Source: Nitrospinales bacterium
GTDB taxonomy: Bacteria; Nitrospinota; Nitrospinia; Nitrospinales; VA-1
Length of the DNA: 64,000 nucleotides
Assembly: GCA_965205835.1 (NCBI GenBank)
Contig: OZ242182.1
Span: 1,334,361-1,398,360 of the forward strand
Reading direction: 5' to 3'
Position numbers and translations under genes: made by a program. The notes under the pieces were generated by a model, which did not search any database, was not told the origin of the DNA, and saw only the letters and a list, made by a program, of their open reading frames with translations. This document shows, piece after piece, positions 43,285 through 64,000 of the stretch (position 1 is its first letter; each line of letters starts with the position of its first letter).

Positions 43285-43289
43285 AAAGC

Positions 43290-44230: not shown

Positions 44231-44392
44231 CCTCTGCTTTGATCAATCAATACCTGGCAAAGGATTTTCATGCGTATCTTCCCTAATGTCTCCCAAAAAA
44301 AAAGAAAACCATGAAAACCACTCCTGATTCTTTAGCACTCTAAATTCACCTTCTGATATAATGGTCAACAAACCTTGGAGCTTCCGGTTTTT

Positions 44393-46906: not shown

Positions 46907-46928
46907 CCCTCCCCATTATCTTAGAGAC

Positions 46929-47198
46929 ATGATAGGCGCCATTGAAATACTTATTATCGCCGTGATCTTCGGGATCATATACGGTCGCGACGCCATCGAC
47001 AAAACATTTCGCAAATCCGCCAACGAGGGAGTTGTGGAAAGTGTGGCTGGCGACCTGAAAGAGTATTATGAGGCCGATCCAAAACGAATGGTCAAGTTAG
47101 CCGCCATAATCCTCGGTGCCATCGCGTTTCTGGTCACCGGTGCTTACTGGGCAATCACCCGAACTGATTTCCTGAAAATGATCGGTCTCGATCAATAA
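46929..47198 (+). CDS. Small membrane protein (hypothetical)
   Basis: 89-aa ORF with two hydrophobic helices. I recognise no family. Confidence 0.45.
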   Translation: MIGAIEILIIAVIFGIIYGRDAIDKTFRKSANEGVVESVAGDLKEYYEADPKRMVKLAAIILGAIAFLVTGAYWAITRTDFLKMIGLDQ

Positions 47199-47659: not shown

Positions 47660-47923
47660 AATATTCTCCCATTTCCAATATTAAACAGAGCCACAGGGAT
47701 GATAACATAGCATTTTTCAAACAATGCCAGTTGGCAATCAACCCACTCGACCCTAAAAGTTTCTTCAAACCCGCTAAACCAGGAGTCGGAAACTCCCTTC
47801 CCCGCGTGGACTTGGGTAACCAGATACTCTGCGTAACAATAAAAAACTTAGTACAATAACCGACATCATTCCAGCACCAGAACAATAATGGGCAACTGAT
47901 TAACTCTGCAACGGAAGCCGCCA

Positions 47924-50900
47924 ATGGATACCAGATTTTTTACAAACAGAAAAGAAAACACCTTATTTAATAAACTTGAAGGCATTTTTGAACACAATAA
48001 AACCATCAATAACTTTGATGTCCTGGTCGGCTATTTCCGCTCATCGGGTTATTTCAAACTGCGCCCACTCCTGGAAAATATCGCCAATATTCGTATTCTG
48101 GTAGGTATTGACGTGGATGAAGTAACCGGAGAAATGCAACGTGCCGGGCTGGCTTTATTCAAAGGCAATGCCGAAAAAACCATTAAAGACTGGCAGAATA
48201 AATTTATCGAGGATGTTAAAACAGCCCATTATGACGAGCACACCGAGCGGGGCATCAAACAGTTTGTTGATGACATACAAACTCAAAAAGTGCGACTGAA
48301 AGCCCATCCCTGCCAAAGCATTCACGCCAAAATATACATTTTTCGCCCCGATAATTTTAACCCGCATAAGGCAGGCAACGTTATTACCGGCTCATCAAAC
48401 CTGACCGATGCTGGTTTAGGCACAAAAACCAGCCCCAATTATGAATTTAACGTGTTGTTAAATGATTATGAGGATATTCAATTTGCCACCCAAGAGTTTG
48501 AAGAGCTGTGGCAGGAAGGTGTAGAAATATTGCCTGAGGTCGCCAGGGACAGTCTCAAAAAAACCCATCTGGCAGATAACGTTACCCCGTATGAGCTGTA
48601 TTTAAAATGTCTGATTGAGTATTTTGGTTCTGAAATTGAATTTGACCCCAACTCCATTAAAGACCTGCCCGATGACTTCAAACGTCTGTCTTATCAGATG
48701 GACGCGGTGAATGAAGGCTGGGAAATGCTTAAAAAACACAATGGCTTTTTCCTGGCTGATGTAGTGGGTCTGGGTAAAACCGTCATTGCCACTTTGATCG
48801 CGCGCCAGTTTTATTATCATAACGGCTATCCTGATCATCGGTCTAAAATTTTATTGGTGATTCCACCGGCACTCAAACAAAACTGGGAAGATACTTTGGC
48901 AAGTTTCAAGATTAATGACGCTTTTGAGATTTTCAACAACGGTAGTTTACACAAAGTTACCAACGCCCAGAAATACGATATGGTGATTGTTGATGAAGCG
49001 CATAAATTCCGCAACGATACCGCAGAGGCCTATAACCAATTACAGCGTATTTGCAAAACCAGAACCTCTGATAGCAAGGAGAAAAAAGTACTGCTGATTT
49101 CAGCCACGCCGCTGAATAATCGCCCCGGTGATTTATATAATCAAATTTTATTATTTCAGGATGGCAACAACTCAACCCTTGATTTTCCACTGTCCGGTTT
49201 CTTTGCCAGAGTAAAAAAAGAGTATGAAGAAGCTCGGAGAATGCCTGACAAACGTGAAGCCGGCCGGCGAACGGCGAAACTCTACGAAACAATTCGAGAA
49301 AAAGTAATTACTCCGTTAGTGGTGCGCAGAACCCGGACTGATTTATTGGCGAATGAGCGTTATAAAAAAGATTTAACCGACCACGGCGTCGCGTTCCCAA
49401 AAACAACCCCGCCAAAACCTGTTTACTACCAATTAAAACCGGACCTGGAAAAATTATACGACAGCACCATCCAAAAAATTGACAACAAAAACCAAAACAA
49501 GTGCGGTCTGTTGCACACCCGTTACCGGGCCTTACACTACTTAAAACCAGAATTCAAACAGCAATATAAACGTGCGGATTTTATTGCCGAGCGCTTGGTA
49601 GCCATCATGAAAACGCTGTTGCTCAAAAGAATGGACAGCAGTTTTTATGCCTTTAAGCAGACTTTGGAGCGTTTTATAGAATCTTCGCGAGCCATGCTGA
49701 AGATGATTGACAACAATAAAATCTTTATTGCCCCGAAGCTTAAGGTGAATAATTATATTTTAGAGGATGAAGAAGAGAAACTAATCAAGCTGATTACCAC
49801 TGAAAATCCAACCGACCCCGACATTGCTATCTATAGTTGTGATGATTTTGAAAAGGGTTTTATCGCGGGAATCAAACACGATTATGAAATATTAAAAACC
49901 CTGAAATCTGAATGGGACACGATAACACGAGATCCAAAACTGAATGAATTTTTGGCCCGATTGCCCGAATTTTTAGCCGAAGCAAACAATCCAGAGCAAA
50001 AAATTGTACTTTTTACCGAAAGTACCGACACCATGCGTTATTTATCGGAGCAAATAAAACAAACCAAATATGGCGAAACAACCCTGAGCGTGGATTCCAA
50101 GAACCGCGATCAAATTAAACAAATTATTGAACAGAATTTTGATGCCAATACAAAAGCCGCGAAAAACAATGATTATCAAATTATCCTTACCACCAATGCT
50201 TTAGCCGAAGGCGTGAACCTGCACCGCGCCAATACGGTTATCAATTATGACACGCCATGGAATGCCATCAAACTGATGCAACGCGTCGGACGGGTTAATC
50301 GTATCGGACAAACGGCGAGCCATATTTTTGTCTATAACTTCTACCCGACCGCGCAAATCAATAATGATATTGAATTGGAGAAAAAAGCACTGATTAAATT
50401 ACAAGCCTTTCATTCGGCATTAGGTGAGGACTCCCAGATTTACTCAACCGATGAACAGGTAGACACCTTCGGCATATTCGATGAAAGTATAAGAGAGGAA
50501 GTCAATGAAACCATCCCGTTTTTAGAAGAGATACGGCAGTTCAGGAAAGACGACCCGGAAGCGTATAAACGCGTCAAGGAGTTACCAGGCAAAGTCAGAA
50601 ACGCGGTCAACAATCCTACCCATAAAGGCGGCACAATTGTTTTCGCCCGTACCAAGGAAACAGGCAGTAGTCGTTTCTATATGGTGAAAGCCAACACAAC
50701 AGCCAGTGAAACGCAAAACGCCGAAGCGTTAAATCGCGCCGACAAAAGCAACACTAACAATAACAAGGTTGACAACTACAGCTTTATTAAAACGGCTAAA
50801 TTACTAAAATGTGCTCCAGATACCAAAGCGGAAGCATTACATGATCAGCACTATCCGCAGGTAGTTTCGGCGTTAAACGAGTTTAATCGGGAAATGGAAC

Positions 50901-51247
50901 AAAACATTATCGATCAGACTCAAAACAAACCATTATCTTCCCATGAAAACAAGGCAATTAAATTTTTAAAGTCCCTTATAAACCTGCCTGATGCAAATGA
51001 CAGTGAACAGCAAAAACTAAAGCTGGCAATCAAGCAAATTGAACATAAACGCTTTCAAAATCTAACCAGAGACATCAACAAATTGATTAAAAACAGCAAA
51101 GGCATTAAGCCAATCGCCGTATTGGGAAAAGCCCTGAATATCATCAAAAAATATGACATTAACAAGTACACGGAATACAGCCAAAACAATCAGAAAAAAT
51201 CCGCAGGTACCCTCCCAACCATTGTGATCTCGCAGTCATACACATAA
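47924..51247 (+). CDS. PLD-family nuclease domain fused to an SNF2-family helicase/translocase
   Basis: The N-terminal HKD motif is SIHAKIYIF...GNVITGSSNLT, with His/Lys at 48323-48331. The SNF2 core has GLGKT (48767-48781), DEAH (48992-49003), LLISATPLNN and LTTNALAEGVNL...YDTPWN...QRVGRVNRIGQ. The C-terminal 250 aa or so are N/K-rich and unassigned. Confidence 0.9.
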   Translation: MDTRFFTNRKENTLFNKLEGIFEHNKTINNFDVLVGYFRSSGYFKLRPLLENIANIRILVGIDVDEVTGEMQRAGLALFKGNAEKTIKDWQNKFIEDVKTAHYDEHTERGIKQFVDDIQTQKVRLKAHPCQSIHAKIYIFRPDNFNPHKAGNVITGSSNLTDAGLGTKTSPNYEFNVLLNDYEDIQFATQEFEELWQEGVEILPEVARDSLKKTHLADNVTPYELYLKCLIEYFGSEIEFDPNSIKDLPDDFKRLSYQMDAVNEGWEMLKKHNGFFLADVVGLGKTVIATLIARQFYYHNGYPDHRSKILLVIPPALKQNWEDTLASFKINDAFEIFNNGSLHKVTNAQKYDMVIVDEAHKFRNDTAEAYNQLQRICKTRTSDSKEKKVLLISATPLNNRPGDLYNQILLFQDGNNSTLDFPLSGFFARVKKEYEEARRMPDKREAGRRTAKLYETIREKVITPLVVRRTRTDLLANERYKKDLTDHGVAFPKTTPPKPVYYQLKPDLEKLYDSTIQKIDNKNQNKCGLLHTRYRALHYLKPEFKQQYKRADFIAERLVAIMKTLLLKRMDSSFYAFKQTLERFIESSRAMLKMIDNNKIFIAPKLKVNNYILEDEEEKLIKLITTENPTDPDIAIYSCDDFEKGFIAGIKHDYEILKTLKSEWDTITRDPKLNEFLARLPEFLAEANNPEQKIVLFTESTDTMRYLSEQIKQTKYGETTLSVDSKNRDQIKQIIEQNFDANTKAAKNNDYQIILTTNALAEGVNLHRANTVINYDTPWNAIKLMQRVGRVNRIGQTASHIFVYNFYPTAQINNDIELEKKALIKLQAFHSALGEDSQIYSTDEQVDTFGIFDESIREEVNETIPFLEEIRQFRKDDPEAYKRVKELPGKVRNAVNNPTHKGGTIVFARTKETGSSRFYMVKANTTASETQNAEALNRADKSNTNNNKVDNYSFIKTAKLLKCAPDTKAEALHDQHYPQVVSALNEFNREMEQNIIDQTQNKPLSSHENKAIKFLKSLINLPDANDSEQQKLKLAIKQIEHKRFQNLTRDINKLIKNSKGIKPIAVLGKALNIIKKYDINKYTEYSQNNQKKSAGTLPTIVISQSYT

Positions 51248-51301: not shown

Positions 51302-51553
51302 ATGCGTAATACCGCCCACAGAACCAACATTGTTTTGGATGAAAATATCGTGCAGGAAGCACTCAAACTCAGCAACATAAAAACTAAACGGGCTTTAATA
51401 GATGCCGCCCTGAAAGAATTTGTTGCCAAACGCAAACAAAATAACAAACCGAATCCTAATCAAGCCTTATTAGCCTTGCAAGGCTGTAAACCATTTTTTG
51501 ATGATTATGATTACAAGGCTCTGCGCGTTAATCCACATTTACCAAAAGACTGA
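51302..51553 (+). CDS. vapB: VapB-family (DUF2191/RHH-type) antitoxin
   Basis: RTNIVLDENIVQEALKLSNIKTKRALIDAALKEF is the typical VapB/DUF2191 N-terminus. Lies 2 nt upstream of the PIN gene. Confidence 0.82.
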   Translation: MRNTAHRTNIVLDENIVQEALKLSNIKTKRALIDAALKEFVAKRKQNNKPNPNQALLALQGCKPFFDDYDYKALRVNPHLPKD

Positions 51554-51555
51554 TT

Positions 51556-51966
51556 ATGTATTTGGTTGATACCTCTGTTTGGATAGATTATTTCAACACC
51601 ACTCAAACACTTTCCAGTGGTTTTTTACGAAAAATACTCATATCAAAATCAACAATAGGCATAAACAATCACATTTATATGGAAGTGTTACAAGGCATCA
51701 GTAACAATAAAGTGCGTAATAATATAAAAGAAAGTTTAAATTTACATGCTTTCCATCCATTTATAAAAAACAAGGAAAGCTATGAAAACGCGGCATTTAT
51801 CTATAGCAGTTGCCGTGAAAAAGGCATCACCATTCGTTCAAGCACTGATTGCCTGGTCGCCCAATGTGCTATTGAGAATGATCTGATTCTGCTGCATAAC
51901 GATAAAGATTTTGTACGAATGGCTGGGGCTGTTCCAACCTTGCAACAGGAATATACAGGCGACTGA
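51556..51966 (+). CDS. vapC: PIN-domain toxin VapC
   Basis: MYLVDTSVWIDYF (first PIN acidic residue), E.LQG, SSTDCLVAQCAI, and LLHNDKDF (last acidic residue). 136 aa. Confidence 0.88.
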   Translation: MYLVDTSVWIDYFNTTQTLSSGFLRKILISKSTIGINNHIYMEVLQGISNNKVRNNIKESLNLHAFHPFIKNKESYENAAFIYSSCREKGITIRSSTDCLVAQCAIENDLILLHNDKDFVRMAGAVPTLQQEYTGD

Positions 51967-54900: not shown

Positions 54901-55388
54901 GATACGGCGGCAAAGGCAATCAAGGGCAGCACCACTGGCTAGAATTAGATAACAATCCGGGTGATACCTATCTGGCAGAATTTGAAAAAGAAAAATTGAT
55001 TTGGATAGAACTGGTGGATAAGGGGCGTTTTGCACATGACGATAAGGAAATTTATTGCGAGGCAACCACTTTCATAATGACAGGAAGTAGTACAAAATAT
55101 CTATGCGCAATTCTAAATTCTAGTTTAGCGCATTGGTATCTTTCACAAGTTGCCCCTACATCAGGAATGGGCACGTTGCGCTGGAAAAAAATCTATATTG
55201 AGACAATACCGGTACCCTTATTGGATAAAGCCAGGCAACAGCCCTTTATAGATTTAGTCGATCAAATCCTCACCGCCAAAGAATCTGGCAAAGACACCAC
55301 CGCACTGGAAACCGAAATTGATAAGAAGGTCTATCAGCTCTACAACCTCACCGATGATGAAATCAAAATTATTGAGGCTAAAAAATGA
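51966..55388 (+). CDS. Large Eco57I/type IIG-like gamma-class N6-adenine DNA methyltransferase with a C-terminal TaqI-like target-recognition domain
   Basis: TGSFYTPREIVSYMV, then the AdoMet motif ILDPAVGSGAYP, then the catalytic IGNPPY (NPPY at 54129-54140). The C-terminal YRGVLTGLNEAFII is the TaqI_C-type TRD. The start ATG overlaps the vapC stop (TGATG). I see no clear PD-(D/E)xK motif in the N-terminal 200 aa or so. Confidence 0.88.
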   Translation: MELFDKAYNQEAYLDFLAGKFTFSKSLLPINIDNNEVKSFKRLGAVETKDDKTLSVFEIYVKPNTQLQRNRVRLRNLVAKEIQTTEDGALAVYVDEENNQWRFSFIAIEWKLTDEGVKEEQTASKRFTYLLGENTQTKTVRDRFATIDEQPTLEDLRQAFAVEPLNKEFYDKLYRWYEKAQKQVVFPNDEQAENHAQTSLIRLLTRLLFIWFIKEKKLINADLFDKDKLQKLIDYDQSSSFYKAILQNLFFATLNRPITERSFRTTTNETANKNNYLVTNIYRYQSYFTNSSKDNIIALFEQTPFLNGGLFECLDREASDEEQQNHDRDRTIRPARSAIRVDGFSDRADNQLKFPNELFFRDDEQNYGLINLFKQYQFTVEESTPLDIEVALDPELLGKVFENLLASYNPETGQQARKATGSFYTPREIVSYMVDESLKQYFKQNTGLDESEINNLFIEKESRLDDERIKTIIHAIDNLKILDPAVGSGAYPMGILQRLVFILEKIDPKNTHFKQQQINKAEQIQDEASRDSAIAAIEQVFSRQNQHNAYGKKLYLIENTIYGVDIQSVAIQICKLRFFISLTIEQSPNWDKNEDYNIKALPNLETKFIVANSLLPLGEMPKDTGLFDEKIKELQKELAEVRHRHFSARTLTTKRKYRKEDKTLREQMRDELTIESGITPEIEQSMQKIVNWDLYNQNTIADWFNPEWQFGVKNSFDIVIGNPPYIQLQKDGGRLGNLYQNRDFKTFARSGDIYQLFYERGMELLTDAQGILAFITSNSWMRARYGKKLRGFLSTKHSPLRLIDMGQDAFEAIVDTNILLVSTGRAEQEFKAVDMDSVSEKQFPPAERYWSEIRPAGDMAWSILPPVEEKIKSRIEQLGTPLKDWDIRIYRGVLTGLNEAFIIDTAKRDELVAADPKSAEIIKPILRGRDVGRYGYKWAGKWVILAKYQSNQYLEQEYPIIYNHLSQYEEKLKQRGQCRYGGKGNQGQHHWLELDNNPGDTYLAEFEKEKLIWIELVDKGRFAHDDKEIYCEATTFIMTGSSTKYLCAILNSSLAHWYLSQVAPTSGMGTLRWKKIYIETIPVPLLDKARQQPFIDLVDQILTAKESGKDTTALETEIDKKVYQLYNLTDDEIKIIEAKK

Positions 55389-57112
55389 TTACCAAAATCA
55401 GTATTAAACGCTTTAAGCAAATCTCTGATGAAACCATCGATCTTGAACCGGTGGTGGTATTGGTCGGACCTAATAATAGCGGCAAGACCAGTCTATTGCA
55501 GGCATTTTCGCTATTAGCAATAGCAATCAAGGTATGGGCTGAAAAACGCCTTGATAATCCAACCAAACAAAATCAACGCACGGGTATTGCGATTAATTTA
55601 AACGATATAAATATACCAGCCGCTGAGTTTAAAGAGCTATGGCAAAATACTAAAACCAGAGAAGGCAATACCACTAAAAAAGGTACAACGCCCATCAAGA
55701 TAGAAATCCATGCCAAAGGAAAGAGCTATGACCAAGAGCAAAAAACAAAGTCATGGGAAGTAGGTTTTGAATTTAGTTATCAGCGAGATAGTGTTATTTA
55801 CACCAAACTCATTGATGGCTATCAGTTTGAAACTATTTTAACGAGAGAAAGTATTGGTTTTTTGCCGTCTATATCTGGTCTTACTCTTAAAGAAGACAAA
55901 TTAGAGATGGGTTCTATTCTTCGCCGTATTAGTGAGGGGCAGACTGCTACGGTGCTGAGGAATATTTGTTACCATTTATATGAAAACAACCAACAAGGCT
56001 GGAATGGTCTCGTCAAAAGTATTAAGGATTTATTTGCCATTGAGTTAAACACGCCCAGGTATTATCCGAATAGTGGCTTGTTGGAACTCAACTATAATGA
56101 AACCACTAATAAAAAAATGTCGCTTTCCGCACTCGGTAGTGGTGCAAAACAGGCCATTTTACTATTTGCCTATCTAGGTGCGTTTAAAAATACTATTAGT
56201 TTACTTGATGAGCCTGATGCCCACCTTGAAGTCATTAAACAAGCTAATGTTTATTATAGTTTGAGTGATTTTGCTAAACGGAATAATAGCCAGCTAATTA
56301 TTGCCAGCCATTCAGAAAGCGTGCTTAATGCCGCTAAAGATGACTTAATAATTTCATCTATGTCGGGTAAGTTTGAAAAAGAATCCGCCAAGGATATTAA
56401 AGCTTTTTTAAAAGATTATCCTTATGAGCAATACTTGTTAGCCAAACAAAAGCCTTTTATCTTATATTATGAAGGCACTACTGATTTGGCTTTTATACGA
56501 GCATTTTGCAAAAAATTAGGCAAACAGGAATACCTTGAGCAATTAAATACAGCTATCTATCCTTTTTCGCTTGATGGTAATGATACGGGTAAAGCAAAAA
56601 AACATTTTTCTGCCCTAAAGAAATACCTGCCCAATCTAAAAGGTTTTGCTTTATTTGATAAACTGAACACGGATAATTTTAAAGACATTCCAGAAGGTCC
56701 AAAGCAGGACGAGCCTTTTGGAGACATTCCAAAAGATCTAAAAATGCGTCAATGGCAACGTAACGAAATAGAAAACTATATTCCTGTGCCCGGCACACTG
56801 ATGAATCATGTCAACGCACAACCTGGAGATTTGTTTTCTCAAACTTACCCATCAAGATTAGAGCGTATTCTAAAAGAGAACATACCTCCTGTTGCCTATG
56901 ATAATTTAAAAGATGACTTTTGGGTGGAGACTAAAATAAGCGATTTTCTCACCAAAATTTTTGAGCAATTTTTAGATGAAACCAGTCAGCCCAGAGGCAC
57001 AATGGATAAATCAAAATTTTATCTATTAGTTGATTATATTGACAAGAACCTGTTGGATGATGAGTTAAAAGAAACGCTTGATAACATATTTACTCATTTA
57101 GCAAAACCCTGA
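55385..57112 (+). CDS. ABC/AAA-type ATPase fused to a TOPRIM-like (DUF4435/OLD-like) C-terminal domain
   Basis: Walker A GPNNSGKTS (55466-55489), signature-like LSALGSGAKQ, Walker B LLDEPDAHLE, and an IIASHSE H-loop. The C-terminal half has ILYYEGTTD (EGxxD at 56471-56485), FALFDKL and RNEIENYI (56765-56779). The ATG overlaps the methyltransferase stop (ATGA). Confidence 0.8.
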   Translation: MITKISIKRFKQISDETIDLEPVVVLVGPNNSGKTSLLQAFSLLAIAIKVWAEKRLDNPTKQNQRTGIAINLNDINIPAAEFKELWQNTKTREGNTTKKGTTPIKIEIHAKGKSYDQEQKTKSWEVGFEFSYQRDSVIYTKLIDGYQFETILTRESIGFLPSISGLTLKEDKLEMGSILRRISEGQTATVLRNICYHLYENNQQGWNGLVKSIKDLFAIELNTPRYYPNSGLLELNYNETTNKKMSLSALGSGAKQAILLFAYLGAFKNTISLLDEPDAHLEVIKQANVYYSLSDFAKRNNSQLIIASHSESVLNAAKDDLIISSMSGKFEKESAKDIKAFLKDYPYEQYLLAKQKPFILYYEGTTDLAFIRAFCKKLGKQEYLEQLNTAIYPFSLDGNDTGKAKKHFSALKKYLPNLKGFALFDKLNTDNFKDIPEGPKQDEPFGDIPKDLKMRQWQRNEIENYIPVPGTLMNHVNAQPGDLFSQTYPSRLERILKENIPPVAYDNLKDDFWVETKISDFLTKIFEQFLDETSQPRGTMDKSKFYLLVDYIDKNLLDDELKETLDNIFTHLAKP

Positions 57113-57130
57113 AAATATCAGCTAACTGGT

Positions 57131-57176
57131 CTATAAACACTACAACCTCACCGCTGATGAAATCAAAATCATTGAA
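57131..57176 (+). pseudogene. Short relic of a methyltransferase 3' end (copy 2)
   Basis: ctataaacactacaacctcaccgctgatgaaatcaaaatcattga aligns with 55331-55375 (ctatcagctctacaacctcaccgatgatgaaatcaaaattattga). Confidence 0.75.
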
Positions 57177-57265
57177 ATCAAGGTCACTCCTGCACACAAA
57201 AAACAACGTCACTCCCGAAAAACACCGCCACTTCCAAAAAAAAAACCATCATTCCCGAAAAAAAC

Positions 57266-57626
57266 CGTCATTCCCGCGCAGGCGGGAATCCAGCGAATAA
57301 CACCATGAGCCACAAACAACCTGCTGTTTATATTTTGGCAAGCCAACCTAATGGTACGTTATACACTGGCGTTACTTCTGATTTAATCAAACGTGTCTGG
57401 GAACATAAAAATCATTTGGTCAAAGGATTCAGTCAAAAATATAACGTAGACCTTTTGGTCTATTTCGAATTGCATGCAGATATGTATGTTGCAATTACGC
57501 GTGAAAAGCAAATCAAGAAATGGAAGCGGGCATGGAAGCTGAGGTTGATTGAAGATAAGAATCCACATTGGAGGGATTTATATAAAGATTTGGTTTGACT
57601 GGATTCCCGCCTGCGCGGGAATGACG
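57266..57626 (+). mobile_element. GIY-YIG gene bracketed by perfect 28-bp inverted repeats (candidate mini mobile/selfish unit)
   Basis: 57266-57293 (cgtcattcccgcgcaggcgggaatccag) is the exact reverse complement of 57599-57626. Each arm contains its own hairpin (tcccgc/gcggga). Degenerate direct copies of the arm lie at 57207-57226 and 57247-57266, with a partial copy at about 57636-57648. Confidence 0.7.
57305..57598 (+). CDS. GIY-YIG nuclease family protein (small UPF0213/COG2827-like)
   Basis: PAVYILAS..NGTLYTGVTSDLIKRVWEHK......F...Y.V..LVYFE......AI.REKQIKKW.R..K..LI is the canonical small GIY-YIG layout. 97 aa. Confidence 0.88.
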   Translation: MSHKQPAVYILASQPNGTLYTGVTSDLIKRVWEHKNHLVKGFSQKYNVDLLVYFELHADMYVAITREKQIKKWKRAWKLRLIEDKNPHWRDLYKDLV

Positions 57627-58061
57627 AATAGGAGAAGCGGGAATGACGTTCCAGACGAGAGCGAGGTCAATCGTTTATTGATATTAACGGCAGTAGTAAC
57701 TCGCCAAATTTTGGATAACGCTAATGACAAATATAAAGCAATAGAGGGAAAAGAATGTGGTGAATTTTGGTACAATTATCCTGATGACGATGGTATACCT
57801 TTAGATATTCGAAAGGCTTGCAATATGATTATTCATGCTACAGATATTGTGATGAAGACGGGCGAGTATTATTATCGTGAAGAAGGAGATGAAAGCGGCC
57901 CCGCACAACAAGATAAGGGGTATTTTCAAGGTAAAATAATGATAACAGGACAAAATAAACGCCGGGGCAGAGGTAAAAGCAGTGAGCGTGCTGAATTGGA
58001 TTTAACAGAATTTACACAACATTGTGTCGAACTTAGCGGTAGAATCGAGGAAGGAGGGTAG
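57621..58061 (+). CDS. Hypothetical protein, start uncertain (possibly N-terminally truncated by the GIY-YIG unit)
   Basis: The ORF is open from 57549, but its 5' part overlaps the GIY-YIG CDS and the right inverted repeat. Possible starts are ATG 57621 (inside the repeat) or TTG 57678 (GAGGT 10 nt upstream). I recognise no family. Confidence 0.35.
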   Translation: MTNRRSGNDVPDESEVNRLLILTAVVTRQILDNANDKYKAIEGKECGEFWYNYPDDDGIPLDIRKACNMIIHATDIVMKTGEYYYREEGDESGPAQQDKGYFQGKIMITGQNKRRGRGKSSERAELDLTEFTQHCVELSGRIEEGG

Positions 58062-58065
58062 GACC

Positions 58066-58284
58066 ATGACAGCATACAGAGACACTTACAAATACCATAT
58101 CAAACGAGGCAATAAAATTTTGCACACTGGCATTACTAATGATTTACGGCGCCGTGAGCACGAACACCAACAAAACTATGGTGGTGCTGTCCATATCAAG
58201 CAGGTTGGCAATCGCACCACCCGCGAAGCCGCTTTACAATGGGAAGACGAACAACGACAGAAGGGAAAACCGGTAGGTCCCTGA
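58066..58284 (+). CDS. Small GIY-YIG-like protein
   Basis: ATG at 58066 with an AAGGAGGG RBS (58051-58058). YKYHIKRGNKILHTGITNDLRRREHEH...ALQWEDEQR follows the GIY...YIG...R..EH...E pattern. 72 aa. Confidence 0.6.
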   Translation: MTAYRDTYKYHIKRGNKILHTGITNDLRRREHEHQQNYGGAVHIKQVGNRTTREAALQWEDEQRQKGKPVGP

Positions 58285-58449
58285 TCAAGTTATCATCGTT
58301 CTGACTGCTTCTTGCGCAAAGGCGCTCTATTGATGGGGTGACTCCTGTCACTCCTTATCCACGGGCGCTGTATGGGCGGCTTCCATACAGAGGCTATGTA
58401 TCAGTTCCTGAAATAGGGATAAAAATAGAGCGCGCAAATTAACAATTAA

Positions 58450-58587
58450 TGCCAGAGACTATCCATCCCCATTGCCAAAAAATCTAGCAAAGACACCACC
58501 GCCATGGAAGCCGAAATTGATAAGAGGGTCTATCAGTTCTACAACCTCACCGCTGATGAAATAAATATTATCGAAGATAAAAAATGA
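58450..58587 (+). pseudogene. Relic of a second methyltransferase gene 3' end (copy 3)
   Basis: It translates as ...IAKKSSKDTTAMEAEIDKRVYQFYNLTADEINIIEDKK*, against the intact gene's LTAKESGKDTTALETEIDKKVYQLYNLTDDEIKIIEAKK*. It ends in the same AAAAAATGA stop/start overlap with the next gene. Confidence 0.85.
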
Positions 58588-59501
58588 ATCGCGAAATGCC
58601 GCCCATGAACATTTCAGACAAGCCAAAATTCTATCGTCAACGATTTTTACTGTCCTTGTTGCGTTTTATCAATACAGAAATAACCAGAACGGAGCTACAC
58701 AAGCACAGCTTTTTATTTTCGCGACAAACTCCTATGGGTTACGATCTCGTTCCTTATCAATATGGCTGTCATTCTTTTCAACTGGACAAGGATTTGTCGG
58801 ACTTATCAGAGCAAGGTTTTATAGGCCCTGGTAAGAAGATAAAACTTAAAACAGACAATCCAATAACCTGGCTAAAAACCAAAGATAGCGATAGCCTATC
58901 CGCGTATCCCAAAGAACATAAAACGTTAAGAGGAGATGATTTGATTGGCTTTACTTATAAAAATTATCCTTATTATGCGATTAATAGCGAAATTATCGAT
59001 AAAATTTGCTCAGACCAAGAGAGAAGAAAAATTGAAAATGAAAAACGACAGCTAAAGAAAAAAAATTCTGCCGCTGTTTATACGCTCGGTTACGAGGGAA
59101 TCAGTTTGGAAACTTATATTAACAAGCTTATCCAGAACAACATAAAGTTATTATGCGATGTCAGAAAAAATCCTTTCAGTCGCAAATTTGGTTTTAGTTA
59201 TAAAACTTTAAGTAATATTTTGCAAAAAGTCGGTATTAACTATGTGCATATTCCACAGCTGGGTGTTGAATCCAATAAAAGAAAAAACTTAAATCATAAA
59301 GAGGACTATAAAAAGTTATTTGGTGAATATAAAGCTACATTGTCTGCCAGAGAAGAAGCACCGGAGAAGGTGCTGGACTTGCAAAAAAGACATCGAAGAA
59401 TTGCCCCGATTTGTTTTGAAAAACACCACCATGAGTGCCATCGCCATTGCGTCAGTGATTATCTTTCTGATAATTATAAAATTCAAACCATTCATTTATA
59501 A
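58584..59501 (+). CDS. DUF488 domain protein with an N-terminal extension of about 160 aa (possible winged-helix/Panacea-like domain)
   Basis: The C-terminal half, VYTLGYEG.S...........I..L.DVRKNPFSRKFGF....L...L...GI.Y.HIP.LG...........C.E.....CHR, is the DUF488 signature. The N-terminal L.K..FL........Y.LVPYQYG.HS..L..DL..L...G.I pattern is only tentatively assigned. Confidence 0.75.
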   Translation: MNREMPPMNISDKPKFYRQRFLLSLLRFINTEITRTELHKHSFLFSRQTPMGYDLVPYQYGCHSFQLDKDLSDLSEQGFIGPGKKIKLKTDNPITWLKTKDSDSLSAYPKEHKTLRGDDLIGFTYKNYPYYAINSEIIDKICSDQERRKIENEKRQLKKKNSAAVYTLGYEGISLETYINKLIQNNIKLLCDVRKNPFSRKFGFSYKTLSNILQKVGINYVHIPQLGVESNKRKNLNHKEDYKKLFGEYKATLSAREEAPEKVLDLQKRHRRIAPICFEKHHHECHRHCVSDYLSDNYKIQTIHL

Positions 59502-59503
59502 TC

Positions 59504-59719
59504 GTGTTAACCAAAGTTCTTATTAGCGTTAAAACCTATCCAACCTTATCAAAAAAATATAATGAACTGGTTTGCACTGCTGGTTTTTTAGAAGATGGAA
59601 CTTGGGTTAGAATTCATCCATTACCATTTAGGGCATTAAAAAATGAGCAACAATATAAAAAATGGCAGTGGATAGAGTTGGATAGTGTAGAAAGTGCCAC
59701 GGAGAAAAAAGGCGATTGA
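59504..59719 (+). pseudogene. Truncated ORF (71 codons), possibly the N-terminal fragment of a larger conserved gene
   Basis: It starts 2 nt after the DUF488 stop. The sequence (VLISVKTYPTLSKKYNELVCTAGFLEDGTWVRIHPLPFR) looks like a conserved globular protein. It stops abruptly where composition changes at about 59720. Confidence 0.4.
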
Positions 59720-60020
59720 GGCAATATGCCGTTATCTGGAACGGTGAAAAAGTGGTGCGTGTTTTACCAACCGACAAAACCAGGGTACCATCACCTTAGA
59801 GTCTTCCTGCCGAGGTATACTATAAATTTCACCTATCGTGGGGCACGAACCGTTGAAGCCTCATCCCCCAAGTATTGCGAGGTGTGCCCCTTCTGGCAAA
59901 ACAGAGGCGCAACGGAAAACCACAACCCAGCATTGTCGAAGCTCACCATCTGAGGGGTTTGGAAATGAAGGTTATGAGGGTTATGCAGGATGGTTTTGGA
60001 AGGCGGTGCGAATCTCCGAA

Positions 60021-60479
60021 TTATTCGGTACTGATGCCATCAAACTTTTTATCCAGTGCTCCAACCAGAGTATGCCAGGCCAGGCTGGCGCATTTCGTGC
60101 GTGACGGGTATTCGCGGATTCCCATAAACAGGGCCAGCTTGCCCAGATGATGCTCATCCTTTTCCGGGTCCATCTCTCCCAGGATCATTTTGTGAAACTC
60201 GTCTTTGATCTGCCTGGCTTCCTCTACCGATTTGCCTTTCAGGAAAGCGGTCATCAGGGAAGTGCTGGCTTTACAGATCGCGCAACCGGAACCCTGGAAA
60301 CTGACCTCATCAATCTTCCCCTTCTGTTCATCTACGTTCAGGTAAACAGTGATATCGTCTCCGCAAAGCGGGTTCACGCCATGGCAATTGTGACTGGCGT
60401 TCTCGATAACATGGAAGTTTCGCGGCTTTCGGTTATGGTCAAGAATGACCTGCTGGTAAAGCTCGTTATCGTAAGACAT
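60021..60479 (-). CDS. sufU: SUF-system Fe-S cluster assembly scaffold/sulfur acceptor SufU (IscU/NifU-like)
   Basis: LYQQVILDHNRKPRNF...NPLCGD...V.F.G.GCAIC.AS.S....L.GK and a C-terminal R..CA.L.W are the SufU hallmarks. 152 aa. Confidence 0.9.
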   Translation of the reverse strand: MSYDNELYQQVILDHNRKPRNFHVIENASHNCHGVNPLCGDDITVYLNVDEQKGKIDEVSFQGSGCAICKASTSLMTAFLKGKSVEEARQIKDEFHKMILGEMDPEKDEHHLGKLALFMGIREYPSRTKCASLAWHTLVGALDKKFDGISTE

Positions 60480-60694
60480 GTAAGTGTTTTCTTATATTTG
60501 TCAAGCCTCTGTTTGTTAAATATAACACAACCTTCGGGGAACTCCCTTTTTTTAAGTGGTCAAAATTTCAATGCTTCAAAGCCTTAATCCGCCGGTTGCT
60601 TATCGCTATAGCTTGCCATAAAGTATGAAGGGTAACTAAATTTTGACAAAGCCCATACATAACTGTTATAAAAAAAGATAGAGGCTAACAGGTA

Positions 60695-61900
60695 ATGAAA
60701 ATATCAAAATTAAAAGTACAAGGGTATCGTTCCTTGAAAGATATTGACTGGGAACCCGATGATTTAAATATTCTCATTGGTCCAAATGGTTCTGGAAAAT
60801 CAAACCTCCTGCGCATTCTGGAACTAGTCTCTATTGCAAGCAAGGGCCAACTTGGGAAACATATCCAAAAAGCTGGCGGTATGGGTGCCCTTTTATGGGA
60901 TGGCGTGACCGATGGCATCAAATTCAATCTCGAAACCTCTCCTGTTGGGGGCAAAACAAATTTAAAGGACGACAGTCTCAATTACGAAATGGGCCTGCGG
61001 CGCTTAGGCAAAGCTAATGCCTATCAGGTCAACTATGAATTACTTGCCAATTACCGTCGGGTTAGGACAGGGGAGCATTCAGAGCCATTTAAACTCTTGG
61101 AGCGTGATGCCCGAAGTGCTGTTTTTTTCGATAACGATCAACACCGTTTAGTTGCCCCCGAAGAAAGTTTATTAGAAGAAGAATCTTTCCTAAGCCTTTC
61201 TACTATACTAACACCAAATCGCGATATACCTCCTTTCCAAGCCTATTTAAAAGAATGGTCTATTTACCGCGATCTACATGTAAATAGTGACGCGCCAATT
61301 CGTCAACCCGCCATAACCCGCCTTGAAAAGAGGGTTGAAAGGGATGGACAGAATCTAATCAGTGTCCTCCACACCTTGTATACCAGTGACCGGGGTTTCA
61401 AGGATGACATAAATTCAGCAATGAGCGCCGCTTTCGGAGAGGACTTTGACGAACTTGTTTTTCCACCTGCCTCTGACCAGCGCACTCAGTTGAGGGTTCG
61501 TTGGAAAACCCTAAAATATGAACAATCAGCGGCTGACTTATCAGACGGAACCCTTCGTTTTCTGTTTTTGCTTACAGCCTTGGCTTCGCCGGACCCCGCA
61601 CCCCTCATTGCGATTGATGAACCGGAAACCGGTCTTCATCCATCTATGTTGCGATTGGTAGCCGAATATGCGGAGGATGCGGCAAAGAGAACCCAAGTCA
61701 TTTTAACAACGCATTCACCTCAATTTCTCGATGCTTTTAAAGGTTTTTCGCCGAAGATTACGGTTACCAAATGGTCTGAAGGACAAACTTTCCTAAAAAG
61801 TCTTGAAGAGGACTTATTAGCCGATTGGTTGAAAGAATACTCTTTGGGGTCTCTGCACCTTTCTGGTGAGCTTCAGAATTTTTTATTTTCCGATACCTAA
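60695..61900 (+). CDS. ABC/AAA-type (AAA_21/SMC-like) ATPase
   Basis: MKISKLKVQGYRSLKDI, Walker A GPNGSGKSN (60779-60802), signature-like LSDGTLRFLFL, Walker B IAIDEPETGLHP, and TTHSP. Confidence 0.85.
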   Translation: MKISKLKVQGYRSLKDIDWEPDDLNILIGPNGSGKSNLLRILELVSIASKGQLGKHIQKAGGMGALLWDGVTDGIKFNLETSPVGGKTNLKDDSLNYEMGLRRLGKANAYQVNYELLANYRRVRTGEHSEPFKLLERDARSAVFFDNDQHRLVAPEESLLEEESFLSLSTILTPNRDIPPFQAYLKEWSIYRDLHVNSDAPIRQPAITRLEKRVERDGQNLISVLHTLYTSDRGFKDDINSAMSAAFGEDFDELVFPPASDQRTQLRVRWKTLKYEQSAADLSDGTLRFLFLLTALASPDPAPLIAIDEPETGLHPSMLRLVAEYAEDAAKRTQVILTTHSPQFLDAFKGFSPKITVTKWSEGQTFLKSLEEDLLADWLKEYSLGSLHLSGELQNFLFSDT

Positions 61901-61913
61901 GGGCAGGCTTGAC

Positions 61914-62552
61914 GTGAAATTCATCTTATTCGTGGAGGGCTACACTGAAAAAGAGGCTCTTGCACCATTCTTAAAAAAATGGTTAGACCAGCATCTTACC
62001 AAACCCGTAGGGATAAAACCTGTACGTTTTCAGGGATGGGCGGAACTGGTTGAGGGTTCTCCGACTAAAGCCAAATTGCATTTATCGCAACCTGAGGTAA
62101 TAGCTGTCATTGCGTTACTCGACCTCTATGGACCCGACATTTATCCAAGTGATCGGAATACCACTAAAGAACGATACCAATGGGGAAAGGAATTTTTGGA
62201 AAGTAAAGCTAATCAGTCAAATTTTTTCCAATTCTTCGCAGTTCACGAAGTAGAAACGTGGCTATTTTCTGATCCATCCATATTCCCTAATTCGATCCAA
62301 CCATCAATCCAGAAAATATCGAGCTTTCCTGAAGAAATTAACAACATAAAACCACCGGCAAAGCGTCTTGATGAGATTTACAAAGCACAAAAAAAAACGT
62401 ACAAGAAAACCACTTCTGGAAAAGACCTTTTTCAAAAACTCGATCCAGCTATTGCATACGAAAAATGTCCATATTTGAGAGTTCTCTTGGATGAAATGCT
62501 GAAAATGGCTAAGCTAAAGTTGCATAGGAAGAAGATGGGTCGCCATACTTAG
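61914..62552 (+). CDS. DUF4276-like (TOPRIM-like) protein, partner of the upstream ATPase
   Basis: The GTG at 61914 lies 14 nt after the ATPase stop. FILFVEGYTEKEAL (VEGxTE at 61932-61949), LLDLYG and AVHEVETWLFSD match my recollection of the DUF4276 pattern. The ORF-track start at 61866 would overlap the ATPase gene. Confidence 0.7.
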   Translation: MKFILFVEGYTEKEALAPFLKKWLDQHLTKPVGIKPVRFQGWAELVEGSPTKAKLHLSQPEVIAVIALLDLYGPDIYPSDRNTTKERYQWGKEFLESKANQSNFFQFFAVHEVETWLFSDPSIFPNSIQPSIQKISSFPEEINNIKPPAKRLDEIYKAQKKTYKKTTSGKDLFQKLDPAIAYEKCPYLRVLLDEMLKMAKLKLHRKKMGRHT

Positions 62553-62610
62553 TTTAAAAATCCAGGATATATCAATTCAAATTTCAACCAACTGTCCAAA
62601 GTAGTGTAGG

Positions 62611-63861: not shown

Positions 63862-64000
63862 CCGTCGCCTCCAGTTTCTTAAGAAGTGTGCCATTCAGTT
63901 CTTCCACCACTTCCGGAAACTCAATGGTTTGAATAATGCTTTTGGCAAAACTTTGGGTGAGAAGCTCTTTCGCCGCCTTGGCAGACAAGCCGCGCGTTTG
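63854..64000 (-). CDS. sufD: SufD C-terminal end (partial; continues beyond the window)
   Basis: The reverse-strand translation ...QTRGLSAKAAKELLTQSFAKSIIQTIEFPEVVEELNGTLLKKLEATDV* resembles the SufD C-terminus (SRGI....A..LL..GF). The position upstream of sufS fits. Confidence 0.6.
   Translation of the reverse strand, partial: QTRGLSAKAAKELLTQSFAKSIIQTIEFPEVVEELNGTLLKKLEATDV

Follow-up and report, generated by a model that had tools for sequence, protein, structure and literature searches.

A conserved methyltransferase gene end as a probable site of defence module turnover in a Nitrospinales genome

Why does the 3' end of a DNA methyltransferase (MTase) gene recur at two downstream sites, with different genes behind the copies? 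This arrangement lies in a 64,000-nt stretch (here, the window) of contig OZ242182.1 from a Nitrospinales bacterium, for which a sequence-only reading had proposed that the conserved end is a recombination anchor allowing downstream genes to be exchanged or stacked. Pieces of the MTase end (~50 to 130 bases) precede several unrelated anti-phage modules, both in the window and in roughly twelve genomes of related marine symbionts. On the basis of this recurrence, the conserved end is probably a place where defence modules have been inserted, stacked, swapped, and lost.

A two-gene restriction-modification (RM)-like core (i.e., a PLD-SNF2 helicase-nuclease and an Eco57I-type MTase; Table 1) forms the base of this locus, which is a defence island. 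The G+C content of the island is below that of its flanks, and no tRNA was found near it. The PLD-SNF2 gene matched the PADLOC model HKD+Snf2 (E = 8e-46) and scored below the NCBIfam cut-offs for DrmD and the PLD anti-phage family; its product is the presumed restriction subunit of the core system. The MTase matched Pfam Eco57I (E = 4e-34) and TaqI_C (E = 4e-16) as well as PADLOC REase_MTase_IIG (E = 2e-147). Among 11 MTase alleles, the final 50 codons were the best-conserved stretch in most pairs, synonymous sites included. The nucleotide identity of these codons was 0.65 to 0.87, versus 0.43 to 0.55 for the preceding specificity-domain bin (L093 was an exception, at 0.84), and the fraction of identical codons was elevated in most pairs. 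This conserved tract (~50 codons; ~150 nt) comes after a hypervariable specificity domain and is followed by variable accessory genes, and it carries a GAGG ribosome-binding site and an overlapping stop/start (ATGA) for the following gene.

Table 1. Features of the MTase locus (positions in the window)
Feature	Position	Strand	Remarks
PLD (HKD) nuclease + SNF2 helicase, 1107 aa	47924..51247	+	Pfam PLDc_2, SNF2-rel_dom, Helicase_C
VapB antitoxin (51302-51553) and PIN-domain VapC toxin (51556-51966)	51302..51966	+	Pfam VapB_antitoxin, PIN
Intact Eco57I/TaqI_C-type N6-adenine MTase, 1140 aa	51966..55388	+	Type IIG-like, PglX-like
Copy 1, conserved 3' tract of the intact MTase	55266..55388	+	Stop overlaps ATPase start (ATGA)
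Cassette 1, single-gene ABC-type ATPase, 575 aa	55385..57112	+	OLD/GajA-like; Pfam AAA_15/AAA_21
Copy 2 (relic 1), 50 nt of the tract	57127..57176	+	nhmmer E = 4e-12
GIY-YIG mini-element	57195..57626	+	~20-nt tandem repeats 57195-57274; 97-aa GIY-YIG gene 57305-57598
Cassette 2 (5'-truncated), C-terminal part of a ~130-170-aa gene and a 72-86-aa GIY-YIG-like gene	57651..58284	+	
Copy 3 (relic 2), ~123-133 nt of the tract including the stop	58465..58587	+	
Cassette 3 gene A, DUF488 fusion, PDC-M19A	58596..59501	+	Pfam DUF488 E = 8e-26
Cassette 3 gene B, PDC-M19B remnant, first 60 of 274 codons	59504..59683	+	tblastn with L002 M19B
Fragment of a 63-aa small ORF (S)	59707..59781	+	

The MTase end recurs as two downstream direct repeats (copies 2 and 3) far above chance. 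A repeat search of the window yielded a 133-nt direct repeat (55266 to 55398 versus 58465 to 58597; 85% identity) and a 48-nt core present three times (55328 to 55375, 57128 to 57175, and 58527 to 58574), in which both relic copies match the intact one at 90% identity. An nhmmer scan of the 64 kb with a relic profile detected three sites (E = 3e-27, 4e-12, and 2e-26) and no other significant match. With 3 mismatches allowed at most, the 24-mer core CTACAACCTCACCGCTGATGAAAT matched exactly the three copy sites and had 0 matches in 100 dinucleotide shuffles. The recurrence claimed earlier is thus real, and the similarity is specific rather than a product of low complexity. Perfect runs shared by the window copies are only 15, 16, and 24 nt long, no longer than the minimum that efficient RecA-type exchange usually requires. 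These short runs suggest that the copies are historical scars and not an active switch.

Relic 1 starts 15 nt past the ATPase stop, and its right side is cut after ...ATTGAA by the repeat region of the GIY-YIG element; its junction with the ATPase 3' end is identical in L002 and L092. Relic 2, which follows an in-frame stop at 58447 to 58449, is 96% identical to the orthologous relic of L004. It translates as given in the sequence-only reading, aligning to MTase residues 1101 to 1140 (tblastn), and shares the terminal AAAAAATGA with the intact end, as also described there. That reading had the stop overlap the ATG of the next gene at both junctions, which holds for the intact copy and the ATPase but not for the DUF488 gene, whose start is placed at 58596 by gene callers. 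The ATG in AAAAAATGA belongs to the MTase end (...KK-stop); the DUF488 ORF is readable from 58584.

The genes behind the intact MTase and relic 2 do differ, as had been noted. The ATPase was assigned by PADLOC as NsnB/AriA/Old-like, and the best PDB matches of its AF2 model (pLDDT 87) were full-length OLD-family nucleases (i.e., OLD 6P74 and GajA). Of its earlier label, ATPase/TOPRIM, the ATPase part is borne out (AAA_15), while a TOPRIM domain is not detectable by sequence. Relics lie on both sides of the ATPase in the window, L002, L092, and L093. The GIY-YIG element, bounded by perfect 28-nt inverted repeats (57266 to 57293 and 57599 to 57626) and 96 to 99% identical to its copies in L004 and L092, is a secondary insertion; it replaced both the 5' end of cassette 2 and the tail of relic 1. 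Cassette 2, whose small gene (58024/58067 to 58284) matches GIY-YIG only weakly, is 77% identical to positions 5789 to 6386 of L094, where the intact two-gene unit lies directly behind a relic. Relic 1 originally stood before a third cassette, a homologue of the L094 unit. The DUF488 gene was identified as PDC-M19A by PADLOC (E = 2e-96; P0001 is this protein with its start called at 58596), and M19B was assigned likewise (E = 3e-114). Because gene B is truncated to 60 codons, the PDC-M19 module of the window is probably dead. In relatives, a zeta-toxin cassette ends with ORF S, which adjoins a relic. Deletions in the island involve M19B and a radical-SAM fragment.

The compared loci come from metagenome-assembled genomes or metagenome contigs, in which assembly errors in repeats are possible; their relic counts, all on the + strand, were 6 (L002), 5 (L012 and L094), 4 (L093), 3 (L092 and the window), 2 (L004, L009, and L014), and 1 (L003), i.e., ten loci with the window. 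Most relics directly precede differing modules. Directly behind the tract or a relic were found the OLD-like ATPase, PDC-M19 (DUF488 and its partner), PDC-M30, PDC-S19, TPR genes, a 128-aa and GIY-like pair, a 278-aa gene followed by a DprA-like gene, a zeta toxin with S, and a C5-MTase module; an AAA_15 and 174-aa pair lies ~75 nt past a relic, and IetAS is located behind a relic-linked TPR fragment. Twenty-two of the 24 relics match only the last 20 to 58 residues of any of 12 MTase alleles, and the stop of the preceding gene is usually within ~120 nt upstream, which argues that the relics are not random deletion endpoints in a 3.4-kb gene.

The search for an MTase directly upstream of a DUF488 fusion was successful: the PLD-SNF2, MTase, DUF488, and M19B operon is intact in four relatives (L009, L010, L011, and L013), with DUF488 starting roughly 10 to 25 nt past the MTase stop. 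However, PDC-M19 A and B also occur in >60 distant loci where no homologue of this MTase is detectable upstream. An autonomous neighbouring module therefore fits better than the third component that DUF488 had been taken to be. DUF488 also lies directly behind DUF5131, with no relic, in L001 and L005. The cassettes look like autonomous defence modules.

Comparison with the nearest relative, L004, revealed a difference in the first slot, which holds the ATPase and relic 1 in the window and PDC-S19 in L004; the MTase end (91% identity), the GIY-YIG element (95 to 96%), relic 2 with DUF488 (96%), and the flanks are conserved. The relic-ATPase-relic unit (55312 to 57155) forms a single alignment (81%) with L002 positions 12593 to 14371, which lie downstream of DUF488, and the array position of the bracketed unit differs in L002, L093, and L094. 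A 2.4-kb segment (55235 to 57626; MTase end, ATPase, relic, and GIY-YIG element) is 94.9% identical to L092 positions 9851 to 12198, whereas the PLD-SNF2 proteins of the two loci share 26% amino acid identity and the MTases 54%, and the chromosomal sites differ. The left side of the empty relic_e of L002 matches relic_d (97%) and its right side relic_f (95%), with the matches overlapping by 29 nt inside the relic; such a hybrid is the footprint expected of relic-by-relic loop-out. Relics of the same cassette in different genomes had a similarity of 0.71 versus a background of 0.72, and copies within one genome 0.80. Given this lack of clustering by cassette type, the notion that a relic travels with its cassette is not general, and the greater likeness within genomes suggests that intragenomic duplication or conversion also acts. 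The proposed anchor role is supported by the arrays in ten loci, the differing first slot of L004, and the differing array positions of the ATPase unit; the 95%-identical L092 module, the L002 hybrid, and the raised conservation of the tract point the same way.

We propose that accessory modules would be acquired at the junction between the MTase and its downstream gene through recombination that depends on homology in the tract. The incoming DNA, carrying its own tract copy, would be a looped-out circle or a linear piece with tract copies on both sides. Every insertion would duplicate the tract and shift the older module downstream behind a relic, and subsequent relic-by-relic recombination would remove or re-order modules. 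The window would then read as the MTase followed by the OLD-like ATPase, relic 1 by the small two-gene unit later damaged by the GIY-YIG element, and relic 2 by PDC-M19 (DUF488 and M19B), the presumed older occupant, now decayed. From the sequences, we infer homologous (RecA-type) recombination, the direction of events, co-transcription, and cassette function.

The relics might instead be passive remnants of tandem complete systems (helicase, MTase, and accessory gene) deleted serially down to their MTase ends. Some clearly derive from the decay of whole MTase genes: in L012, an MTase N-terminal fragment (residues 286 to 383) and an inserted HinP1I-type RM gene precede relic_a, an internal MTase fragment lies upstream of L094_c, and L009_r spans 96 residues. 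Only 28 PLD-SNF2 codons are left in L005, a second PLD-SNF2-VapBC set lies downstream of the L094 array, and the window's own island bears the M19B and radical-SAM deletions. We nevertheless consider serial decay unlikely to explain the arrays, since the short span of 22 of the 24 relics leaves little upstream room, no helicase fragments lie beside relics, the ATPase unit, though at differing array positions, is bounded by the same two relic junctions in four genomes, L002 holds a hybrid empty site, and synonymous conservation is elevated in the tract. Less probable still is a dedicated enzyme (an integron-like recombinase or the neighbouring GIY-YIG nuclease) using the tract as an attachment or homing site. 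The left ends of the relics vary by cassette (20 to 58 residues; 48 to 133 nt), the tract lacks any conserved hairpin or inverted repeat, and a tRNA or att-like context is absent. The GIY-YIG repeat region does meet the relic at the same base (...ATTGAA/ATCAAGG) once in the window and twice in L092, involving two different relic variants, but this element occurs in only 3 loci and, in L004, does not adjoin a relic. Similarly, a serine recombinase is encoded ~8 kb downstream of the L094 array, yet most arrays contain no integrase or recombinase, and those of L002, L012, and L093 have neither a recombinase nor the GIY-YIG element.

Retention of the relics mainly for their use to the downstream gene, which they would provide with a promoter, a ribosome-binding site, or a short upstream frame that couples translation, can be compatible with module exchange at the tract, because it addresses why relics persist and not how they arose. 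Most copies have GAGG ~8 to 9 nt ahead of an ATG overlapping the relic stop (ATGA), short open frames occur at relics (27 codons from the relic 2 ATG; 46 aa in L004; 77 aa in L012), and all cassettes are co-oriented, with no + strand terminator between the MTase and DUF488. Such a role is rather doubtful as the main reason: promoters were not enriched (23 found versus 22.8 expected), no conserved RNA structure was found, the tail bearing the ribosome-binding site is missing from relic 1 and from the L003 relic, DUF488 uses its own start in the intact operons, and nothing lies behind L002_e, L002_f, and L012_e.

Integron arrays likewise consist of co-oriented, promoter-less cassettes behind one platform, with a recurring short sequence between them. 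The MTase arrays differ in having no IntI integrase, no attC-like hairpin in the repeat, and variable repeat boundaries. Defence-island hotspots resemble the MTase locus in that variable defence cargo lies between conserved sequences and turns over through flank recombination; to our knowledge, however, their boundaries are entire conserved genes, and no serial relics are left behind. The left anchor of the MTase locus is instead a ~150-nt tract inside a defence gene, and a copy is left per event. Examples of such hotspots are those of P2/P4 (PMC9122126), Escherichia coli (PMC10121019), and the Pseudomonas aeruginosa core (PMC10250203).

The MTase-end arrays resemble two other known arrangements, of which they may be a variant. 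One comprises the orphan toxin/immunity cassette arrays downstream of cdiA and rhs genes (Poole et al. 2011, PMC3150448). In both, a long main gene is followed by co-oriented displaced modules, and a short piece of its conserved sequence is kept upstream of each variable part. Exchange at cdiA/rhs was proposed to occur by homologous recombination at the conserved piece, possibly after tandem duplication (PMC3150448), and the L002 array shows such a tandem duplication together with the footprint of a loop-out. At cdiA/rhs, however, what varies is the C-terminal domain of the main protein itself, along with an immunity gene, and the cargo is toxins, whereas the MTase locus gains a separate gene or operon past the stop, the cargo is anti-phage defence modules, and the anchor is the extreme 3' end of a DNA methyltransferase. 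The other is the insertion with long target duplication of RM genes (Furuta, Abe and Kobayashi 2010, PMC2853133), in which, as here, defence DNA lies between direct repeats of >30 bp with no transposase or integrase, and the repeat may overlap the 3' end of a resident gene. Repeat-mediated amplification and release were proposed for these insertions (PMC2853133); the ATPase unit with its 48-nt flanking repeats and the one-copy empty site in L002 are of the same type. Unlike those insertions, the inserts here are not R and M pairs, and the same target, which lies inside an RM gene, is reused to give arrays of up to six copies.

The core itself resembles the BREX-related Type-2 BR systems (PMC12839542), in which a PglX-like N6-MTase occurs together with an HKD nuclease and Swi2/Snf2 helicase effector. 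Passages of that paper on Type-2 BR, which make no mention of MTase-end relics or cassette arrays, note that such loci can have auxiliary or backup effectors next to them, among these OLD-type ABC ATPases and other nucleases. The DUF499 AAA+ ATPase and DUF3780 genes that define Type-2 BR are missing from the MTase locus. The VapBC pair is wedged between the helicase and MTase genes, a position repeated in L093 and L094. Relatives of this pair include a ~700-nt homologous stretch in L004 and a VapC-like ORF in L010.

The conserved 3′ end of the intact methyltransferase gene (hereafter, the tract of the MTase; its displaced extra copies are termed relics) occurs three times in the window. A repeat search detected a 133-nt direct repeat (55266-55398 versus 58465-58597; 85% identity) and a 48-nt core at 55328-55375, 57128-57175, and 58527-58574, with both relic copies of the core 90% identical to the intact one. 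An nhmmer profile of the relic copies matched the three sites (E = 3e-27, 4e-12, and 2e-26) with no further significant match in the 64 kb, and a 24-mer core with up to three mismatches occurred at exactly three sites in the window and at none in 100 shuffles. These searches confirm the repeat claimed in the sequence-only reading as real and specific. The translation of relic 2 was also as given there; it aligns to MTase residues 1101-1140, and the intact MTase end and relic 2 share the same terminal sequence (AAAAAATGA). Perfect identity between the copies in the window extends over only 15, 16, and 24 bases, so that they are better regarded as scars than as a working switch.

Features of the island and its right flank in the window
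Feature	Coordinates	Strand	Basis
PLD nuclease + SNF2 helicase	47924-51247	+	
VapB/PIN VapC pair	51302-51966	+	
Eco57I/TaqI_C-type MTase, 1140 aa	51966-55388	+	
AAA_15 ATPase, start overlapping the MTase stop	55385-57112	+	
Relic 1	57127-57176	+	nhmmer
GIY-YIG mini-element with perfect 28-nt inverted repeats	57195-57626	+	
5′-truncated gene + small GIY-YIG-like gene	57651-58284	+	
Relic 2	58465-58587	+	nhmmer
DUF488 fusion (PADLOC PDC-M19A)	58596-59501	+	E = 2.4e-96
PDC-M19B remnant, codons 1-60 of 274	59504-59683	+	
Fragment (75 nt) of small ORF "S"	59707-59781		
Radical-SAM gene fragment	59787-59945		
AAA_21 ATPase (PADLOC HEC-01A) + DUF4276 pair	60695-62552		E = 4e-63 (HEC-01A)

The G+C content is 0.37 to 0.43 in the island and 0.44 to 0.49 in its flanks, and no tRNA gene lies nearby. 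No plus-strand terminator was found between the MTase and the DUF488 gene, which is compatible with one long operon in which these genes may be co-transcribed. To the right of the PDC-M19B remnant, fragments of other genes precede chromosomal sequence with NifU, the AAA_21/DUF4276 pair, and SufS. At 59504-59945, a deletion has removed much of what is the right end of the island; the radical-SAM gene, a fragment here, is intact in locus L002 (14989-16050). Locus L005 occupies the same chromosomal site (flanks 84 to 91% identical; window 38758-48009 and 60021-64000) and retains there only 28 codons of the PLD-SNF2 gene and the DUF5131 and DUF488 genes. Two other loci (L004 and L092) carry modules 95 to 96% identical to those of the window, with flanks not common to it. 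The VapBC pair has the same placement in L093 and L094; at this position, L004 has a homologous stretch of ca. 700 nt and L010 a VapC-like ORF.

The MTase matched Pfam Eco57I (E = 4e-34; 119 bits versus a cutoff of 25.3), TaqI_C (E = 4e-16), and PADLOC REase_MTase_IIG (E = 2e-147); on the basis of these profiles, we predict an Eco57I/TaqI_C-type (i.e., type IIG-like, PglX-like) N6-adenine DNA methyltransferase. Assignment to BREX PglX was rejected (NCBIfam BREX_1_MTaseX, 94 bits versus a cutoff of 500), and PglZ and BrxC are absent among the genes neighboring the MTase. The adjoining 1107-aa protein combines PLDc_2, SNF2, and Helicase_C domains (Pfam), as do Type-2 BREX-related (BR) systems. 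In the BR study, the Type-2 core comprises a DUF499 AAA+ ATPase together with DUF3780 as a gene of its own, the latter in 98% of members (PMC12839542). Pfam scans of the main ORFs (40244-63894) found neither; the PLD-SNF2/PglX-like MTase pair resembles Type-2 BR but lacks the DUF499 and DUF3780 genes. DISARM, for which we considered the DrmA helicase, DrmB (DUF1998), and DrmC or DrmD with DrmMI, with DrmD above its curated cutoff, was also rejected (DrmD, 164 bits versus a cutoff of 610; DrmA and DrmB absent from the locus). The core was assigned to none of the three systems, as it scores under the cutoffs and lacks defining partners.

The ATPase has an N-terminal ABC-type domain (Pfam AAA_15, AAA_21, and SMC_N) and fold matches to OLD (6P74) and GajA. 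The best matches of its structural model (pLDDT 87) are full-length OLD-family nucleases, namely, 6P74 (E = 5e-12) and GajA; the full-length Foldseek alignment with OLD/GajA spans ca. 650 columns at a low TM of 0.30. For a TOPRIM domain, residues ca. 320 to 575 gave no Pfam or PDB sequence match; in the model, four strands make up an alpha/beta unit, and the invariant residues include E363-G364, D425, E461, and E463.

We traced homologues of the DUF488 protein and of the ATPase to their contexts in public assemblies and obtained 80 further loci by scanning a single genome for each species. The relatives are uncultured marine bacteria (i.e., "Ca. Spongiihabitans," "Ca. Ruthturnera," a Bathymodiolus symbiont, a Methylococcales sponge symbiont, and metagenome-assembled genomes [MAGs] labeled Nitrospinales), and all comparison loci are MAGs or metagenome contigs. 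The labels of three MAGs (L005, L004, and L092) conflict: "Ca. Spongiihabitans," "Nitrospinales bacterium," and "Leptonemataceae." The sequence-only reading had called for genomes with an MTase directly upstream of a DUF488 fusion, and these were found: intact PLD-SNF2, MTase, DUF488, and M19B genes follow one another in L009, L010, L011, and L013, with the DUF488 start roughly 10 to 25 nt past the MTase stop. The same reading had proposed the DUF488 protein as a third component of the system, a wording that calls for a caveat: PDC-M19 pairs (i.e., the DUF488 fusion, A, and its partner gene, B) are also present in more than 60 distant loci without a detectable homologue of the window's MTase upstream, and the module is probably autonomous. 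PDC-M19B, truncated in the window, is complete in L002, in L004, and in the majority of the other loci retrieved. The DUF488 module of the window is a decayed former occupant, and the present partner of the MTase is the OLD-like ATPase.

Tract and relic copies, counted with nhmmer including the intact MTase end where present and all on the DUF488 strand, number six in L002, five in L012 and L094, four in L093, three in the window and L092, two each in L004, L009, and L014, and one in L003; L001 and L005 carry DUF488 without any relic. In L004, the MTase frame (4702-8090) stops at 7959 and the conserved 3′ tract runs on in another frame to 8090, which reflects either a frameshift or an assembly error. 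In metagenomes, the exact 24-mer pattern had no match, and a degenerate pattern had eight single matches, mostly intact MTase ends close to contig edges. Neither window protein looked up had an exact database record, and hence no population variants of this locus were obtained.

The genes directly behind a tract or relic are diverse. They include the OLD-like ATPase, PDC-M19, PDC-M30 (GMT-wHTH plus DUF5131), PDC-S19 (DUF3644), tetratricopeptide repeat (TPR) proteins, a 128-aa pair, a 278-aa gene followed by a DprA-like gene, a zeta toxin with a 63-aa ORF (ORF "S"), and a C5-MTase/HATPase_c module. Less directly linked are an AAA_15 plus 174-aa pair ca. 75 nt past a relic and, in L012, IetAS behind a relic-linked TPR fragment. 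In L009, a relic and eight codons of PDC-M30A adjoin glyA. No functional study of PDC-M19, PDC-M30, or DUF488 in defense was found in the open-access literature.

Comparisons among these loci support an exchange of modules at the tract. The window and L004 are 91% identical at the MTase end, 95 to 96% in the GIY-YIG element, and 96% across relic 2 and DUF488, versus just 78 to 82% in the restriction-modification genes themselves; the first slot holds the ATPase and relic 1 in the window and PDC-S19 in L004. The relic-ATPase-relic unit (window 55312-57155) forms one block of 81% identity with L002 12593-14371, where it lies downstream of DUF488, and the two genomes agree in the junction between ATPase and relic (...AACT/GGTCTATAAAC). 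The stretch from the MTase end through the ATPase and relic 1 to the GIY-YIG element (window 55235-57626) is 94.9% identical to L092 9851-12198, while amino acid identity is only 26% for PLD-SNF2 and 54% for the MTase and the chromosomal site differs. L002 also has an "empty" relic (12070-12159) that matches its relic_d on the left (97%) and its relic_f on the right (95%), with the two matches overlapping by 29 nt inside the relic; such a footprint would be expected if a tandem duplication had lost the ATPase from one of its copies by loop-out. Compared with 11 other MTase alleles, the last 50 codons of the window's MTase show nucleotide identities of 0.65 to 0.87 versus 0.43 to 0.55 in the specificity-domain bin just upstream (L093 is the one exception, at 0.84). 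In most pairs, the share of identical residues that are also encoded by the same codon is raised there as well (e.g., L001, 0.89 versus 0.41 to 0.78 elsewhere; L089, 0.69 versus 0.35 to 0.52). The related loci therefore support the proposed exchange and stacking of cassettes at the MTase end; homologous recombination would be the mechanism, and the copies now in the window are scars.

A cassette formerly stood behind relic 1 as well. Window 57656-58262 is 77% identical to L094 5789-6386, where an intact 128-aa plus 71-aa gene pair directly follows a relic to which relic 1 aligns. To the right of the GIY-YIG inverted repeat, homology resumes only ca. 150 nt into the 128-aa gene, which suggests that the GIY-YIG element overwrote the relic 1 tail and the 5′ end of that gene. 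With relic 1 formerly before the 128-aa pair, all three copies in the window stood before different modules. The element consists of a 97-aa GIY-YIG gene between the inverted repeats (CGTCATTCCCGCGCAGGCGGGAATCCAG), preceded by tandem repeats of ca. 20 nt, and was found in only three loci (the window; L004 9049-9558; L092 11760-12200 and 12600-13470). L092 carries two full copies and five tandem 110-nt partial copies, and the copy in L004 does not adjoin a relic. The element abuts a relic at one base (...ATTGAA/ATCAAGG) in the window and twice in L092, involving two relic variants; this fixed junction may stem from common descent or target preference, and the element is probably a hitchhiker. 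Its inverted repeat was rejected as a genome-wide REP-like repeat (two copies in the 64 kb; element in three loci).

Relics could simply be what is left of decayed whole MTase genes, and this is clearly so for a minority (L012_a, L094_c, and L009_r). However, 22 of the 24 relics match just the final 20 to 58 residues of any of 12 MTase alleles, and the stop of the preceding gene usually lies no more than about 120 nt upstream of the relic, a pattern not expected from random deletion endpoints in a 3.4-kb gene. Codon variants inspected by eye had hinted that relics regularly co-travel with their cassettes. This was rejected as a rule, since identity between relics of the same cassette in different genomes (0.71) does not exceed the background (0.72); it fits some pairs only, such as the TPR relics L002_b and L012_a (92%) and the ATPase unit. 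Copies within a genome are more alike (0.80; L012_b and L012_d, 95%), which indicates that intragenomic duplication or conversion also acts. A Shine-Dalgarno-sequestering hairpin or other RNA structure as the cause of tract conservation was rejected (RNAalifold predicted no pairs in 22 copies), and Rfam has no family in window 55000-60200. An internal promoter was likewise rejected, with no enrichment in a promoter scan and no site listed in relics.

Integrons combine an IntI tyrosine recombinase with attC sites, whose imperfect inverted repeats form hairpins. An integron cassette array was rejected here: the annotated ORFs of the island and near flanks include no integrase, and the 22 copies analyzed with RNAalifold show no attC-like hairpin. 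Taken singly, the insertion of the ATPase corresponds to "insertion with long target duplication" (PMC2853133): 48-nt repeats (>30 bp) flank the ATPase, L002 offers a one-copy empty site, and neither a transposase nor an integrase lies between the repeats. That survey required both R and M homologues in the insert (PMC2853133), whereas the insert here is a single OLD-like ATPase gene and the same target was reused serially. Orphan cassettes arrayed behind cdiA and rhs have been suggested to recombine at a conserved sequence, perhaps following a tandem duplication (PMC3150448). As in those arrays, displaced modules here retain a conserved portion of the main gene. In CDI/Rhs, however, the variable part is in frame and completes the main protein, while the relic here includes the MTase stop, the variable part is a separate gene, and the cargo consists of putative defense modules. 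No description of MTase-end relics separating defense cassettes was found in the open-access literature.

We propose that the tract, as the only homology common to otherwise mosaic MTase alleles and immediately upstream of the accessory gene, would recombine, perhaps RecA dependently, with incoming DNA carrying a tract and a different accessory module. This DNA could be linear, with a tract copy on either side, or a circle released from another array by loop-out. Its insertion would duplicate the tract and displace the older module downstream, and later relic-by-relic recombination would delete or reorder modules. In the window, an ancestral MTase would have been followed by PDC-M19, as in L009 to L013; further modules (a small two-gene unit and then the ATPase unit) would have been inserted, and then the GIY-YIG element, before a deletion truncated M19B. 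It is conceivable, though we think it unlikely, that the MTase 3′ tract is under selection as a platform for docking and expression, in effect a "defense integron" independent of any recombinase. Mobile cassettes would then carry tract copies as homology arms, dock behind the MTase in translational coupling, and be shuffled, stored, and reactivated by relic-by-relic recombination across the marine-symbiont clade. If so, a preceding MTase-end relic would be a sequence signature for new defense genes, with the recurrent TPR protein, the 128-aa gene and its small GIY-YIG partner, and the 278-aa gene next to a DprA-like one as candidates.

The loci provide a sequence-level picture of how a defense island may be assembled and remodeled with no transposase or integrase taking part: the short conserved tract that closes a restriction-type methyltransferase gene would serve as a repeated landing site, with a datable scar per event. 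These anti-phage loci share the "main gene plus orphan cassettes" layout of polymorphic toxin loci. Genes directly behind relics are strong candidates for new defense functions, and several uncharacterized ones recur.

In four genomes, a TPR gene begins at the ATGA junction that a tract or relic provides (L002 8788-9873; L012 2739-4046 and 8256-9869; L093 6474-7352; L094 4357-5439), and in L012 three copies or fragments are linked to relics. The C-terminal segment of the L002 protein is hydrophobic. TPR proteins behind relics match no defense family and may be accessory defense or sensor genes. ORF "S" (61 to 73 aa; no family match) lies right behind a zeta-toxin/AAA_33 gene and occurs at L002 11901-12092 and 12400-12591, L093 9719-9940, L094 9666-9851, and L014 ca. 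9724-9867, in addition to the window. The called zeta-toxin and "S" genes overlap by 4 nt in L093 and L094, and in L014 the homology begins just after the zeta-toxin gene. The end of "S" falls exactly at a relic in several loci, and L002 keeps "S" three times without the toxin. The AAA_21 (HEC-01A)/DUF4276 pair beside the suf genes, likely another defense system, is kept at the same place in L001 and L002. A three-gene module (N6_N4 or C5 MTase, HATPase_c protein of ca. 680 to 700 aa, and protein of ca. 250 to 290 aa) varies in slot: upstream of the Eco57I-type MTase in L001 (310-4500) and L002 (1-3192), between helicase and MTase in L010 (2421-6604), and downstream of the MTase in L014 (5034-9132).
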